Virus record (IMG/VR): IMGVR_UViG_2711768066_000009
Location: 1 to 17,462 of that record
Length of the DNA stretch: 17,462 nt
Reading direction: 5' to 3' (one strand)
Source: a virus
Taxonomy: Duplodnaviria > Heunggongvirae > Uroviricota > Caudoviricetes
The notes beneath the pieces were generated by a model. That model ran no database searches. It worked only from the letters and a program-made list of their open reading frames with translations, and had not been told where the DNA came from. This document shows positions 5,402 through 15,369 of this stretch, piece after piece. The position numbers and the translations under genes were made by a program. Each line of letters opens with the position of its first letter. Within the stretch, counting starts at the first letter, position 1.

Positions 5402-5811
5402 CAAAGCAGTGGCTGTTGTGGTGGGGTTGTCACTCAGGCGTATGGTCAACCTGACAATCCGGTGTCCTCAACGGGGAAAGAGTAACCCCGCCATACTTAC
5501 CGCCGCGCCATTTCGCGGATTACCACAACGCTGAGAGCACTTAGCCAGTTACGGCACCACACTTTGTCGCTGCTCCATAAATGCCCTCATCGTTGCACCC
5601 TGGTCTATTCCCAGGCGTCAAACCGAATCGCCACGCTGGTTAGGCGTCTTATCAGCATCCTCATTGACTTGCACATTCCGGCTACCTGGTTTGTTTGCCC
5701 GAGCAAGGAGTGGATTGTCCCCTTTAACGTCCCCAGACCGCTAACGACGCATGTGCCATACGCCGTGTTACAAGCAAATTTTGTTTAATCTTCCTGTGGC
5801 ATGTTTCTTTT

Positions 5812-5845
5812 AGATACATTATGTATCTTAAGGGTACATTGTCAA
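5812..5845 (-). promoter_or_regulatory. PL-like leftward promoter with overlapping palindromic operator
   Basis: Minus strand reads TTGACA (-35, plus 5840-5845), 16-nt spacer, CATAAT (-10, plus 5818-5823). Perfect 17-bp palindrome AGATACATTATGTATCT (5812-5828) overlaps the -10 and start site. Confidence 0.5.
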
Positions 5846-5883: not shown

Positions 5884-6558
5884 TTAGGCCTTTATTTTGT
5901 ATCTTCTTGGTTTTCCTGAGAAAATTACTGTACCAATTATAGAGCAATTACCGTTAATCTTAATGTAAGGCTCAGGCCAGTTTGGGTTTAATGCTTTGAG
6001 ATAACGCTGTGTTCCATCTTCTATCAATCGCTTGAAGGTGGTTTCGCCTGTATCGTGCATCAATGCAATAACGTCGTCACCGTGGCAGGCAGGGACTTCG
6101 GGATCAACAAAAATCATGTCTCCCGGGCGATACTCATCAATCATTGAATCACCAATCACCCGCAAGATATAAGTCATTTCGCCACAGGGTACAGGGCAGG
6201 GATAAGTTTCTGCTGTGCTCAAATCAACCTCAGAATAGCCAACTTCTTTCCATGCTCCGGCCTGTACCCATGATATGACAGGGACTAACGTTATTTGTTT
6301 GTTAGTGATTGAAACATCAGGTTTTTTTGTGATGTTCGTGGTCTGGTGTTCTTGATCAAGCCATCCGACAGGCAGGTCGAAACATTTTTCGATGTGCCGT
6401 GCCATGCTGTCACCGATATTTTTAGTAGCACCATCTCCCATAAACCTGCTGGTCTGGGTTGGCTCGCGATCAATCATGGTGGCAAAGGAAGAATTCCCGC
6501 CAACACCATCTCTCAGTTTTCTGGCGTTAGACCGCCGGATGTCATGGACTGTTTTCAT
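5884..6558 (-). CDS. cI: CI-like prophage repressor (N-terminal HTH, C-terminal S24 LexA-like peptidase domain)
   Basis: 224-aa ORF; C-terminal region (VIGDSMIDEYRPGDMIFVD...) matches the S24 autocleavage domain pattern (Ser in GDSM). Position divergent from cro; weak or absent SD, consistent with a leaderless transcript. Confidence 0.85.
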   Translation of the reverse strand: MKTVHDIRRSNARKLRDGVGGNSSFATMIDREPTQTSRFMGDGATKNIGDSMARHIEKCFDLPVGWLDQEHQTTNITKKPDVSITNKQITLVPVISWVQAGAWKEVGYSEVDLSTAETYPCPVPCGEMTYILRVIGDSMIDEYRPGDMIFVDPEVPACHGDDVIALMHDTGETTFKRLIEDGTQRYLKALNPNWPEPYIKINGNCSIIGTVIFSGKPRRYKIKA

Positions 6559-6648
6559 AAAGAAATTAAAACCTTTGTACCGATAAGGTACAAGTATCTT
6601 GAAGGTTCATATTAATCATGTAATATGTATATCGGAGGTACATATTGT
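6559..6648. promoter_or_regulatory. immunity-region divergent promoters and operators (OR/PR/PRM-like)
   Basis: 19-bp palindrome TTGTACC-GATAA-GGTACAA (6575-6593). Rightward promoter candidate TTGAAG (6599-6604), 16 nt, TAATAT (6621-6626). Imperfect second site GGTACATATTGTATG (6636-6650). Leftward -10 candidate TTTAAT directly upstream of the cI ATG. Confidence 0.55.
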
Positions 6649-7444: not shown

Positions 7445-8277
7445 ACAGTTTAACGGCAAATAACCGTTTGTCGCAACAGCTGGTGGTCAGTGTCGCTGAA
7501 CACCTGTTGTTACGGCATGAATGCAGATTACCAAATCACCTGGCTGTAAGTAACCACAGAGAACTTTACCTGACTGTGGGGGGCGAGTTGTGCAGGAACT
7601 TAACCGCTGGTTTCGTGACGGAAGAGGACTTTATGTTCATGTTATTCGTTGGGAGCCAGAAACACAGCGCGTTATCTATCTTCGCAAAGACTACCCGCAT
7701 GAGTGCTTTAGTCCTTTGTGGAAATTCAGGCGTGATTTTGTTGAGTGTGAAGGACCACCAGCACATTGATTCTGCCATTCCGGGACGTTACACTGTTCAG
7801 GCACCTTATAAAGCGGGTGTCGGGATTGGCGTCCTGGAATTCAATATAGAGCATAACCGCGCTCATGCGGTTTTTTCGTATCATGAGCATTGCTACGTCC
7901 AAATTATGGTGGGGCGTGCAGGGGCATCGCAAGATGCGCCGGGTTCTATGTTGACCGGTTACGCCAACCCTGTACGTCTCACCACCTCTGTGATTGGCGT
8001 CCCATGTGGTGAGTTCTTTGAATTCAACATAGGGGCTGTCACCATGACTACTCTCCCAACCCTCGCTCGTCTGAATGATGAAGACTTACATAAACTCAGT
8101 TATGTAACAACTGCACTACGTGCTCTGCGCAAGGTAACTCTTTCGGATCCGCAGGCGCATCAGGTTCTGGTAGAAACACTTCTTAACTTGCAGGCTGAAC
8201 GTATTCGTTTGGCGGATAAGGCTAATTTTCATATTCACCGTCTCCTGAATATCAGCGGAGGGCATCGTCATGCTTAA
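7441..8277 (+). CDS. hypothetical protein (278 aa), unknown function
   Basis: Sole long ORF in this interval; ATGA overlap with the upstream gene, and its stop overlaps the ATG of the next ORF; no recognisable motifs. Confidence 0.6.
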   Translation: MNSLTANNRLSQQLVVSVAEHLLLRHECRLPNHLAVSNHRELYLTVGGELCRNLTAGFVTEEDFMFMLFVGSQKHSALSIFAKTTRMSALVLCGNSGVILLSVKDHQHIDSAIPGRYTVQAPYKAGVGIGVLEFNIEHNRAHAVFSYHEHCYVQIMVGRAGASQDAPGSMLTGYANPVRLTTSVIGVPCGEFFEFNIGAVTMTTLPTLARLNDEDLHKLSYVTTALRALRKVTLSDPQAHQVLVETLLNLQAERIRLADKANFHIHRLLNISGGHRHA

Positions 8278-9415: not shown

Positions 9416-10069
9416 ATGAGTAATAAATATTGCCAGGCGCTGGTAGAACTGCGGAACAAACCAGCCCATGAACTGAAGGAAGTGGGCGATCAGTGGCGCA
9501 CGCCGGACAACATTTTCTGGGGAATTAACACTCTGTTTGGCCCGTTTGTTCTGGATCTGTTTACTGACGGTGATAACGCCAAATGTGCCGCGTATTACAC
9601 GGCGGAAGATAACGCGCTGGCGCATGACTGGTCAGAACGTCTTGCGGAGCTTAAAGGTGCTGCCTTTGGTAATCCCCCATACAGCCGCGCCAGTCAGCAT
9701 GAGGGGCAATACATCACCGGCATGCGTTACATCATGAAACATGCCAGTGCCATGCGTGATAAGGGCGGGCGCTATGTTTTCCTGATCAAAGCTGCCACCA
9801 GCGAAGTGTGGTGGCCGGAAGATGCGGACCATATTGCTTTTATTCGCGGGCGTATTGGTTTTGAACTGCCTGCCTGGTTTATCCCGAAGGATGAGAAGCA
9901 GGTGCCGACAGGCGCTTTCTTCGCTGGTGCTATTGCTGTTTTCGACAAGACCTGGAAGGGACCGGCAATCAGCTACATCGGGCGCGATGAACTTGAGGCA
10001 TGTGGTGAGGCCTTTCTGGCGCAGGTTCGCCAGCAGGCAGAAAAACTGGTCAGGGAGATGGCGGCATGA
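9416..10069 (+). CDS. phage Dam-like DNA N6-adenine methyltransferase
   Basis: 217-aa ORF with NPPY catalytic motif (FGNPPYSRA); size and layout typical of phage Dam-family methyltransferases; ATGA-coupled to downstream gene. Confidence 0.8.
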   Translation: MSNKYCQALVELRNKPAHELKEVGDQWRTPDNIFWGINTLFGPFVLDLFTDGDNAKCAAYYTAEDNALAHDWSERLAELKGAAFGNPPYSRASQHEGQYITGMRYIMKHASAMRDKGGRYVFLIKAATSEVWWPEDADHIAFIRGRIGFELPAWFIPKDEKQVPTGAFFAGAIAVFDKTWKGPAISYIGRDELEACGEAFLAQVRQQAEKLVREMAA

Positions 10070-10392
10070 CGACGTTAACTCAATGCCAGCAGCAGGTGCT
10101 GGATATGCTGATTTCTTACCAGAAAGAACGTGGCTTCCCGCCAACCAATCAGGAGGTGGCAACCATGCTGGGATACCGTTCGGTGAATGCAGCGGTGGAG
10201 CATCTTCGCGCACTGGAGAAAAAAGGCGTCATCACGATAAAGCGTGGCGTGGCCCGGGGGATAACGCTTCATACCGCGATGAAGGACGACGACAGCGAGG
10301 CGGTCGGGATTATCCGCTCACTGCTTGCCGGTGAGGAAAACGCCAGGCTGCGTGCAGCCCACTGGTTACATGAGAGGGGCCTGAAAGTATGA
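10066..10392 (+). CDS. LexA DNA-binding-domain-like protein lacking the S24 peptidase domain
   Basis: 108 aa; residues 1-70 align convincingly with the E. coli LexA N-terminal winged-helix domain (QQQVLDMLISYQKERGFPPTNQEVATMLGYRSVNAAVEHLRALEKKGVI vs LexA [50 protein letters not shown]); no cleavage/peptidase region. Confidence 0.75.
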   Translation: MTTLTQCQQQVLDMLISYQKERGFPPTNQEVATMLGYRSVNAAVEHLRALEKKGVITIKRGVARGITLHTAMKDDDSEAVGIIRSLLAGEENARLRAAHWLHERGLKV

Positions 10393-10778
10393 AGCTGATC
10401 CTGCCTTTTCCGCCCAGCGTGAACACGTACTGGCGACACCCCAACAAAGGGGCGTTTGCTGGTAAGAGCCTGATAAGCGCGGCGGGGCGAAAATTCCAGA
10501 GCGCGGCGTGCGCTGCAATAGTTGAGCAGTTACGTCGTCTGCCGAAACCAACGTCGGCACCTGCTTCAGTGGAGATCGTGTTGTTTCCTCCGGATAACCG
10601 GATCCGCGATCTGGACAACTATAACAAGGCGCTGTTTGATGCCCTGACCCACGCGGGTGTGTGGGAAGACGACAGCCAGGTGAAAAGAATGCTGGTGGAG
10701 TGGGGACCGGTTATCCCGGAAGGGAAGGTCGAGATCACTATCAGTAAGTACGAGAAAACGGCGGGTGCAGCCGCCTGA
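10389..10778 (+). CDS. rusA: RusA-family Holliday junction resolvase
   Basis: 129 aa; N-terminal LPFPPSVNTYWRH and central DLDNYNKALFDALT match RusA catalytic-core motifs. Confidence 0.85.
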   Translation: MKLILPFPPSVNTYWRHPNKGAFAGKSLISAAGRKFQSAACAAIVEQLRRLPKPTSAPASVEIVLFPPDNRIRDLDNYNKALFDALTHAGVWEDDSQVKRMLVEWGPVIPEGKVEITISKYEKTAGAAA

Positions 10779-12604: not shown

Positions 12605-12621
12605 TTTTGTGGAGAAAGTTG

Positions 12622-12993
12622 ATGCGTGATATTCAAATGGTTCTTGAACGTTGGGGGGCATGGGTGGCAAATAATCACGAGGATGTGGAATGGTCATCTG
12701 TTGCTGCAGGTTTTAAGGGATTAATTCCTTCGAAAGTAAAATCCCGCCCGCAATGTAGCGATGACGATGGCCTGATCATTAGCTCTGCGATGACAGTTCT
12801 TAAGAAAAAGGAACCGTATCAATACGAATTACTGGAAATGTATTATGTGTATGGGGTTACATTACGGGCGTTGGGGGTAAAACTGGGGATATCACTTAAT
12901 CAGGTTGTTATCAGACTGCAGAAAGCTGAAGGGTTTATTGACGGTTGTCTGGCAATGTTGGGGGTATCTTTAGAAATTGATTGTTACATATAG
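12622..12993 (+). CDS. Q: Q-like late-gene antiterminator
   Basis: Start at ATG 12622 (GGAG upstream; MRDIQMVLERWGAWVANNHEDV...); resembles phage-21/82-type Q (QuuD-like) proteins as I recall; positioned just before the late region. Confidence 0.75.
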   Translation: MRDIQMVLERWGAWVANNHEDVEWSSVAAGFKGLIPSKVKSRPQCSDDDGLIISSAMTVLKKKEPYQYELLEMYYVYGVTLRALGVKLGISLNQVVIRLQKAEGFIDGCLAMLGVSLEIDCYI

Positions 12994-14316: not shown

Positions 14317-15369
14317 ATGAAAAATACTGTAAAAATAAACAGTGTTGATTTAATCAACGCTGATTGCCTGCATTTTATTCAGTCCCTGCCTGATAACTCC
14401 ATTGATCTGATTGTTACCGATCCGCCGTACTTCAAAGTGAAGCCCAACGGCTGGGACAATCAGTGGAAAGGGGACGAAGATTACCTGAAGTGGCTGGACC
14501 ACTGTCTGGCCCAGTTCTGGCGGGTACTGAAACCAGCCGGAAGCCTTTACCTGTTCTGTGGGCATCGCCTGGCATCTGATATTGAGATCATGATGCGTGA
14601 ACGTTTCAACGTGCTTAACCATATCATCTGGGCGAAGCCGTCCGGACGTTGGAATGGGTGTAATAAAGAAAGTCTGCGTGCATATTTTCCTGCCACAGAG
14701 CGCGTTCTGTTTGCTGAACATTACCAGGGGCCATATCGCGGCAAAAGTGACGGCTATGCGGCAAAAGAAAGGGAACTCAAACAGCACATAATGGCACCGC
14801 TGATATCGTATTTCAGGGATGCTCGTGCCGAACTGGGTATAACGGCAAAACAAATTGCCGAAGCCACAGGTAAGAAAAATATGGTTTCCCACTGGTTTGG
14901 TGCCAGTCAGTGGCAGTTGCCGAATGAGGCTGACTATCGGAAGTTACAGGCACTGTTTTCCCGTATAGCGGCAGAGAAGTTTCAGGAACAACAACTGGAA
15001 CAACCACACCACCAGCTGGTGGCATCTTATGATTCACTGAATCGTAAATATTCTGAATTGCTGGATGAGTTTAAATCTCTCCGGCGCTATTTCTCCGTAT
15101 CAGTCTCCGTGCCTTATACCGATGTCTGGATGCATAAACCCGTTCAGTTCTACCCGGGGAAACATCCGTGTGAGAAACCGGCGGATATGCTCAGGCAAAT
15201 AATCAATGCCAGTAGTCGACCAGGTGATCTGGTTGCTGATTTTTTTATGGGATCCGGTTCCACAATAAAAGCAGCAATGGCGCTGGGGCGTCGGGCCTTA
15301 GGTGTTGAGCTTGAGTCAGAGCGGTTTAATCAGACAGTGAAAGAGATAAACGAGCTGGTGGGGAAATAA
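14317..15369 (+). CDS. DNA methyltransferase, beta-class amino-MTase (N6-adenine or N4-cytosine)
   Basis: 350 aa; DPPY motif near the N-terminus (LIVTDPPYF) and AdoMet-binding motif near the C-terminus ([13 protein letters not shown]); this motif order is typical of beta-class MTases. No adjacent restriction endonuclease gene. Confidence 0.8.

Follow-up and report, generated by a model that had tools for sequence, protein, structure and literature searches.

LexA dimerises via its C-terminal domain, and its isolated N-terminal fragment still binds operators and can repress if it is stable or abundant. The operator bases are contacted by Ser39, Asn41, Ala42, Glu44 and Glu45 (PMC3091678, the role of Glu44 being a secondary citation); the specific contacts are located at operator positions 14-18, position 15 is read by Asn41, and the CAG is essentially invariant (PMC5999292). 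A truncated phage homologue has been described in the Bacillus thuringiensis tectivirus GIL01. This protein, gp6, shares 44% identity with the LexA of B. thuringiensis; it occupies GaCACAnnTGTGaC, a site overlapping the -35 element of the late promoter P3, which it activates, and Lys38 of its recognition helix is essential (PMC6182141). Here, a further phage-encoded LexA DNA-binding domain is analysed. It is encoded by a stand-alone gene at positions 10066-10392 (plus strand, stop codon included) of the window, that is, the whole stretch of 17,462 nucleotides of the virus record IMGVR_UViG_2711768066_000009. The gene runs from an ATG start to a TGA stop and specifies a 12-kDa protein of 108 amino acids, which has a complete LexA-type winged helix-turn-helix (wHTH) without the S24 cleavage and dimerisation domain. 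An earlier, sequence-only reading had proposed precisely this (a LexA winged-helix head of some 70 residues in a protein of about 108 at these coordinates, with no S24 region), and Pfam, BLASTP and the AlphaFold2 and Foldseek comparisons agree with it.

Domain content and fold

The wHTH occupies residues 1-65 (10066-10260, plus strand), as delimited by Pfam, the AlphaFold2 model, Foldseek and the comparison of the family profile with the Protein Data Bank (PDB). In Pfam, these residues cover the LexA_DNA_bind profile PF01726 from end to end (positions 1-65 of 65; E-value 2.9e-19; 69 bits, the cut-off being 23.7 bits), and the same search gave no match to Peptidase_S24 (PF00717) in the 108 residues. 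Consistently, the NCBIfam lexA equivalog TIGR00498 is matched over model positions 1-91 of 203 only, with 70.6 bits, under its cut-off of 110.95 bits. Aligned with LexA of Escherichia coli by BLASTP, the protein is identical at 39 of 90 positions (43%; residues 1-90, E 1e-21). The AlphaFold2 model, built from a 17-sequence family alignment, has a mean predicted local distance difference test score (pLDDT) of 84 and comprises three helices (residues 6-22, 28-35 and 40-52, with the recognition helix SVNAAVEHLRAL) and a two-strand wing (56-58 and 66-68). Its best Foldseek matches are the LexA-DNA complexes 3jso and 3jsp, with a root mean square deviation of 1.0-1.1 Å over 67-69 residues and an identity of 50-51%. 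The protein probably descends from the LexA winged-helix domain of a gammaproteobacterial host.

The domain that carries the Ser119/Lys156 dyad in canonical LexA, responsible for both S24 peptidase activity and dimerisation, is missing, nor is it encoded in the next open reading frame (ORF): the product of this ORF, the start codon of which shares bases with the LexA-like stop, is RusA according to Pfam, not a peptidase domain. Furthermore, 10066 is the earliest start codon downstream of the prior in-frame stop, so that a longer version of the 108-residue protein is impossible. Since there is no autocleavage domain, the protein cannot be inactivated by RecA* through self-cleavage, in agreement with the non-cleavability that had been claimed for it, and its predicted character as a DNA-binding and non-cleavable protein is close to certain.

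What follows the wing is not a remnant of LexA. In the profile comparison with PDB, the alignment to solved LexA chains ends at about residue 74-77, and the tail is therefore family-specific. It forms a helical hairpin (residues 72-103; 10279-10374, plus strand), delimited by the AlphaFold2 model and the family alignments, with helices at 72-88 and 93-103; the linker at 71-75 is modelled with low confidence and residues 81-100 with a block-mean pLDDT of about 88-91. Its amphipathic pattern, IRxLLxxxxxAxxRAxxWLxxxG, is retained in relatives of 40-50% identity, A97 and L101 being invariant. Such relatives, of 104-135 amino acids, align over their full length, tail included, in a HMMER search of 1.84 billion representatives, and PHROG_362, a 106-position profile named 'transcriptional repressor', matches residues 1-108 with its positions 1-106 of 106 (E 1.4e-59). 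As judged from these full-length matches, the short form is a conserved native form, and not a truncated lexA or a gene fragment.

As for the role of the hairpin, the weaker Foldseek matches are winged-helix regulators with extra helices (the BlaI-like Rv1846c, MepR and other MarR-type proteins, and MntR/DtxR). Several regulators of this kind dimerise via their additional helices. On this ground, we infer by analogy that the hairpin could be a dimerisation module in place of the LexA C-terminal domain. The representative search also returned longer proteins (P0132, P0133, P0147, P0148 and P0154, of 140-350 amino acids) in which the LexA DNA-binding domain is matched in two stretches; these may be tandem-duplicated LexA heads, capable of a dimer-like binding without S24.

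DNA contacts and candidate operators

Of the residues by which LexA contacts its bases, four out of five are kept in the phage protein (Ser39, Asn41, Ala42 and Glu45), together with His46, Lys53 and the wing residues Arg64 and Gly65. The alignment with LexA that the sequence-only reading had suggested as a check on the DNA-contact residues thus shows agreement at these four positions and a difference at Glu44, which is replaced by Val. When the short family is aligned with LexA, no variation is seen at Ser39, Lys53, Arg64, Gly65 or Ile66, and hardly any at Asn41, Thr27, His46 and Gly61. The recognition helix SVNAAVEHLRAL equals that of E. coli LexA at 9 of 12 positions and does not vary among 80 E. 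coli-type loci.

Potential targets were sought in the window and in two sets of related loci: a synteny set of 205 IMG/VR loci, comprising four lineages (window-like, P0126-like, P0130-like and P0137-like), and a control set of 80 prophage loci, each centred on DUF968 and taken from different species of Enterobacterales, of which 23 contain the LexA-like gene and 57 do not. In the window, two perfect CTGT-N8-ACAG sites are found versus 0.22 expected (two are reached in 5 of 200 shuffles), so the suggested scan does return such sites, but both lie within ORFs and the better one is also present in phages devoid of the gene. One of them, at 7544-7559 within the Ash-family ORF, makes a poor box. 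The second, the candidate TACTGTAAAAATAAACAGTG (14325-14344, plus strand), coincides with the consensus at 16 of 20 positions and lies in codons 3-9 (N-T-V-K-I-N-S) of the N6_N4 methylase gene, which is located between Q and the genes for lysis. Host LexA may really bind this candidate in the late transcript, or the match may be a by-product of the coding sequence. With small changes, it also occurs in Stx2a_WGPS2 and in many species-level prophages.

Near-consensus SOS boxes are numerous in the related loci carrying the gene. Counts of CTGT-Nx-ACAG for x = 2-14 in the phage loci are enriched at x = 8 only, which means that canonical SOS boxes exist as potential targets and led to the rejection of an alternative operator spacing. 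A strong box, TACTGTATTTATGAACAGTG, is located in the spacer of about 150 bp that separates rusA from the KilA-N gene in SfIV (L001, position 9765), in L011 (position 6765) and in 12 further window-like loci; this suggests that the antirepressor-like KilA-N gene is LexA-controlled in those loci. In the window, the gap between both genes measures 20 nucleotides and has no box. In the P0137-like lineage, SOS boxes stand ahead of a recA homologue, a UmuD'-like ORF and a gene of the DinI family (PF06183, E 1.2e-23).

Some additional observations were made on these loci. Directly 5' of the LexA-like gene there is an 'SOS island' in L192 (3600-6330), L198 (4830-6330) and L200 (4530-6400), in which consensus boxes are followed by a UmuD'-like ORF (GFPSPAxDY...), a complete homologue of recA, a gene of the DinI family and a conserved ORF of 79-101 amino acids (PHROG_1813). 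A small ORF 5' of the gene in the P0137-like lineage was considered as a possible leftover from the C-terminal domain of LexA and discarded, its BLASTP match having an E-value of 0.014 only and Pfam giving no match. Finally, in L011 (1546-1565) and about 24 window-like loci, an SOS box, TACTGTTTTTACATACAGTA, with 17-18 of 20 consensus positions, is found inside one cI allele, where it encodes N-T-V-x-x-N-S.

Possible mechanisms

The likeliest single mechanism, although its probability falls just short of even, would be that of a small RecA-insensitive DNA-binding regulator that occupies SOS boxes as a non-cleavable repressor. According to it, the LexA-like protein would belong to the delayed-early products that follow induction or infection and would dimerise via its helical hairpin; the dimer would then bind, in the phage genome, the host genome or both, palindromic operators of CTGT-like half-sites, either SOS boxes or sites close to them. 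Repression at those promoters would not be relievable by RecA*, and genes with SOS boxes would be re-repressed, or kept repressed, while the host LexA is destroyed. The position of the gene in the P0137-like lineage, directly 3' of the SOS-box-driven dinI-like, recA and UmuD'-like genes, speaks at first sight in favour of SOS boxes as the targets.

Several findings weigh on the other side. The one truncated LexA homologue of a phage to have been characterised, gp6, works as an activator and at an altered site (PMC6182141). While true LexA proteins have E-[E/D] at positions 44-45, no member of the short family has Glu at position 44 (Val here; A, V, F, T, Y or L across the family), and in several of its lineages A, S, L, T or G stands in place of Glu45, with the recognition helices SPNAAVAHVKSL, SPNAVALHLRAL, SPNAAASHLKAL and SVNTIAGHLRAL; this pattern at positions 44 and 45 looks like a drifting specificity rather than the constraint that an invariant host SOS box would impose. 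The TACTGTAAAAATAAACAGTG site lies within a coding region and is also present in phages without the LexA-like gene: it is kept in Eeyore and has one core change in phiP27, neither of which shows the gene in the regions fetched. Strong SOS boxes are not enriched with the gene either, being found in 8 of the 23 control loci that have it (0.22 per 10 kb) and in 30 of the 57 that lack it (0.38 per 10 kb), and no operator-like palindrome was detected in the intergenic DNA of the window beyond the CI operators and terminator stems. Lastly, dimerisation through the tail is inferred by analogy. From the absence of enrichment in the 80-species control it follows that SOS boxes belong to this prophage region, not to the LexA-like gene; together with the methylase box in gene-less phages, it overrules the idea of SOS boxes as co-evolving targets and leaves the boxes near the gene as neutral evidence.

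A more ambitious form of SOS-box occupancy, rather unlikely as a whole, would make the protein a RecA-proof off-switch of the SOS response, in which a tail-mediated dimer, made by lambdoid phages (those with Stx2 among them) early in the lytic cycle, re-occupies both host and phage SOS boxes after the loss of LexA. Such a switch would silence SOS functions detrimental to the phage, among them colicin and lysis genes, SOS toxins and the LexA-controlled antirepressors of rival prophages; ruvAB would be silenced too, with the phage RusA replacing it.

The strongest competing explanation, not far behind in probability, is that of a phage-specific transcription factor of diverged specificity, similar to gp6, in which the LexA scaffold has been re-targeted to a non-SOS operator. 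Its task, in delayed-early control or in host takeover, would be the repression or activation of one promoter of the phage or of a few in the host. There is a clear precedent in GIL01 gp6, with its GaCACAnnTGTGaC site at the late promoter P3 (PMC6182141), and the constant loss of Glu44, the lineage-specific changes at positions 42-45 (e.g., NTIAGHL, NAVALHL and NAAVAHV) and the lack of SOS-box association in the 80-locus control all fit with it. Nonetheless, neither a conserved non-SOS palindrome in the intergenic DNA of the window nor any other CTGT-Nx-ACAG spacing was found for such a factor to use, the late genes are already served by the Q antiterminator, the four conserved LexA contacts and the helix invariant across 80 loci argue against divergence, and tblastn (E <= 1e-3) revealed no relationship with the tectivirus gp6.

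It is improbable, in turn, that the protein is not a transcription factor but a DNA-binding accessory of the RusA/DUF968 recombination and DNA-processing module, for example targeting or marking DNA. The synteny that inspires this explanation is certainly tight. The order LexA-like gene, rusA, (kilA-N), DUF968 and Q recurs across the 205 IMG/VR loci; rusA lies directly 3' of the LexA-like gene, in the window with an overlapping stop and start, in 79 of 80, 10 of 11 and 78 of 80 loci of three lineages, and DUF968 is no more than 6 kb away in 70 of 80, 9 of 11, 76 of 80 and 33 of 34 loci of the four. This is, however, the ordinary gene order of the nin-like region, and DUF968 does without the LexA-like gene in the 57 control loci mentioned above. 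The presence of the gene in only 23 of the 80 species-level loci, where the synteny holds, marks it as accessory to a nin-like region that is otherwise standard. To our knowledge, LexA-type wHTH domains have no role outside transcription, which also counts against an accessory of this kind. One natural fusion (P0159; L290, 5001-5723) joins a LexA DNA-binding domain to an HNH-like DUF968 C-terminal domain and adjoins Q. This fusion was seen once, in a prophage that is decaying and has its recA split; it probably arose by deletion as an artefact, and it was given no weight as a functional link to DUF968.

An action on host LexA itself, be it as a heterodimerising dominant-negative protein (heterodimers had been envisaged by the sequence-only reading) or as a trans-cleaved substrate or decoy at LAGE (residues 87-90), is hardly credible: the BLASTP and TIGR00498 alignments do extend to residue 90-91 and place L-A-G-E opposite the A-A-G-E of the LexA cleavage site (Ala84-Gly85), but A-G is not conserved (relatives of 40-50% identity have VERE, LTRK, LSGG, IDDQ, LACS, MADT or VAEL), the homology of the family profile with LexA stops at about residue 74-77, beyond which the tail is non-homologous, the segment is helical in the model instead of the strand-loop of the LexA cleavage region, and the C-terminal domain by which LexA dimerises is missing. 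For the same reasons (motif, profile and model), LAGE was also rejected as a relic of the site.

Locus and operon

The prophage setting that had been assumed for the gene is evident from the gene content, the window being the early and lysis region of a lambdoid prophage of the SfIV/SfV/CPS-53 kind. Leftward genes include those for a DUF2303 protein, an exonuclease and a PrtN-like protein. The rightward series starts with CI (5884-6558, minus strand, with its own S24 domain), a Cro-like protein, CII, an Ash-family protein and a replication protein, and ends with Dam, the LexA-like protein, RusA, KilA-N, DUF968, Q (12607-12993), the N6_N4 methylase, a holin, a lysozyme and Rz. The LexA-like gene is tightly packed between its neighbours, all on the plus strand. 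The dam methyltransferase gene (9416-10069; PF05869, E 9.7e-46) overlaps it by an ATGA (10066-10069), in which the start codon of the LexA-like gene meets the TGA stop of dam, and the end of dam contains a Shine-Dalgarno-like GGGAG (10053-10057) 8 nucleotides 5' of the ATG. At the other end, a second ATGA (10389-10392) joins the TGA stop to the ATG of rusA (10389-10778; PF05866). The gene thus appears to be translationally coupled to both dam and rusA, and no promoter-like site was found in the window sequence directly 5' of it.

This arrangement is consistent with the LexA-like protein being a delayed-early product of the rightward operon, expressed after induction or infection. The location in the early-right operon, the coupling, the lack of an adjacent promoter and a CI with its own S24 domain indicate that the protein is probably made after induction, and the same points make it unlikely that the phage tunes its own induction by means of it, as had been proposed.

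Two other elements of the window are worth describing. Palindromes flank cI at 5801-5839 and 6575-6593, of the types TTGTACC-N5-GGTACAA and AGATACAT-T-ATGTATCT; in all probability these are OR and OL, the operators of CI, with no relation to SOS boxes. At the very beginning, an antitoxin-like ORF with a SocA/Panacea domain (1-573), cut by the window edge, overlaps an ORF of 139 amino acids (570-989) without a Pfam match, and the pair, spanning 1-989, may act as toxin and antitoxin, or in defence, at this end of the prophage.

Distribution and annotation

The gene is very common. At a DNA identity of at least 95%, it is found in 2233 of 5426 complete E. coli genomes (41%), with up to four copies per genome, and the identical protein is present in NCBI on 449 contigs, under the name 'LexA family transcriptional regulator'. 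Phage records containing it amount to 50 by megablast and 63 by tblastn, and the carriers include SfV (orf42), SfII, SfIV (gp43), cdtI, mEp460, mEp390 (45% identity) and converting phages for the Shiga toxin (Stx) variants Stx2a, Stx2c and Stx2k. In some phage records (KF030445.1, LR595868.1, LR595862.1 and AB285204.1), the labels read 'SOS-response repressor and protease LexA' or 'RecA-mediated autopeptidases'. Since the protein has no peptidase domain, protease-type labels of this sort are wrong; the database names in general, including 'transcriptional repressor' and 'LexA repressor', are homology-based. Full-text literature searches returned no functional study of the enterobacterial short LexA family, and the genome paper of SfIV does not mention LexA. 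The gene itself is therefore already annotated; what is new is an enterobacterial, tailed example of a phage-encoded truncated LexA homologue.

Significance

As a sequence feature, this is at present an ordinary and already annotated accessory gene, but its mode of action would matter for SOS biology in Stx and other lambdoid lysogens. If SOS boxes were really bound, some of the SOS regulon would escape the control of RecA while the phage develops, through a prophage gene that is very common, with a bearing on prophage-prophage competition, the release of colicins and toxins, stress-induced mutagenesis and the biology of Shiga-toxin phages. Were the off-switch true, mutagenesis and possibly the Stx output would be reshaped in about 40% of E. 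coli strains. If, on the contrary, the operator had diverged, this would be the second independent case, after GIL01 gp6, of a LexA head re-used as a private phage regulator.

Comparison with known systems

With the N-terminal domain of E. coli LexA (1lea; 3jso and 3jsp), the phage protein shares the winged-helix fold, the full PF01726 domain and a recognition helix of the gamma type. Unlike LexA, it has neither the cleavage-site hinge nor the S24 catalytic and dimerisation domain, it carries the substitutions Glu44 to Val, Pro40 to Val and Arg28 to Asn, it possesses a two-helix C-terminal tail of its own and it scores below the NCBIfam lexA cut-off. Their genes differ as well, given that lexA is an autoregulated SOS gene and that of the phage belongs to an early operon. 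The autocleavage fragment LexA(1-84) is likewise a LexA DNA-binding domain without the C-terminal domain and insensitive to RecA*. That fragment is a weakly binding monomer, which ClpXP clears via the new C-terminus, whereas the conserved structured tail of the phage protein could provide both dimerisation and stability.

GIL01 gp6 resembles the phage protein in being a phage-encoded LexA DNA-binding domain without the autocleavage domain, and in being an early gene product that acts alongside the control of phage genes by host LexA. Nevertheless, gp6 represents an independent lineage, derived from a Gram-positive LexA, since no tectivirus was matched by tblastn: among the 63 matches obtained from 50,697 phage records (E <= 1e-3) there are no tectivirus or Bacillus phage relatives, all of them coming from Enterobacterales or unclassified phages. 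In addition, gp6 lacks the helical hairpin tail and ends after the wing (homology model in PMC6182141), and binding to a non-LexA palindrome and activation have been shown for it, while the phage of the window has a Q antiterminator for its late genes. The nearest counterparts are the other members of PHROG_362 and of the corresponding NCBI family, in which the copies from SfV, SfII, SfIV, cdtI, mEp460 and the Stx2a, Stx2c and Stx2k phages are 95-99% identical (in DNA and protein), show no difference of substance and are likewise flanked by rusA on one side and by dam, or a PerC-like gene, on the other.

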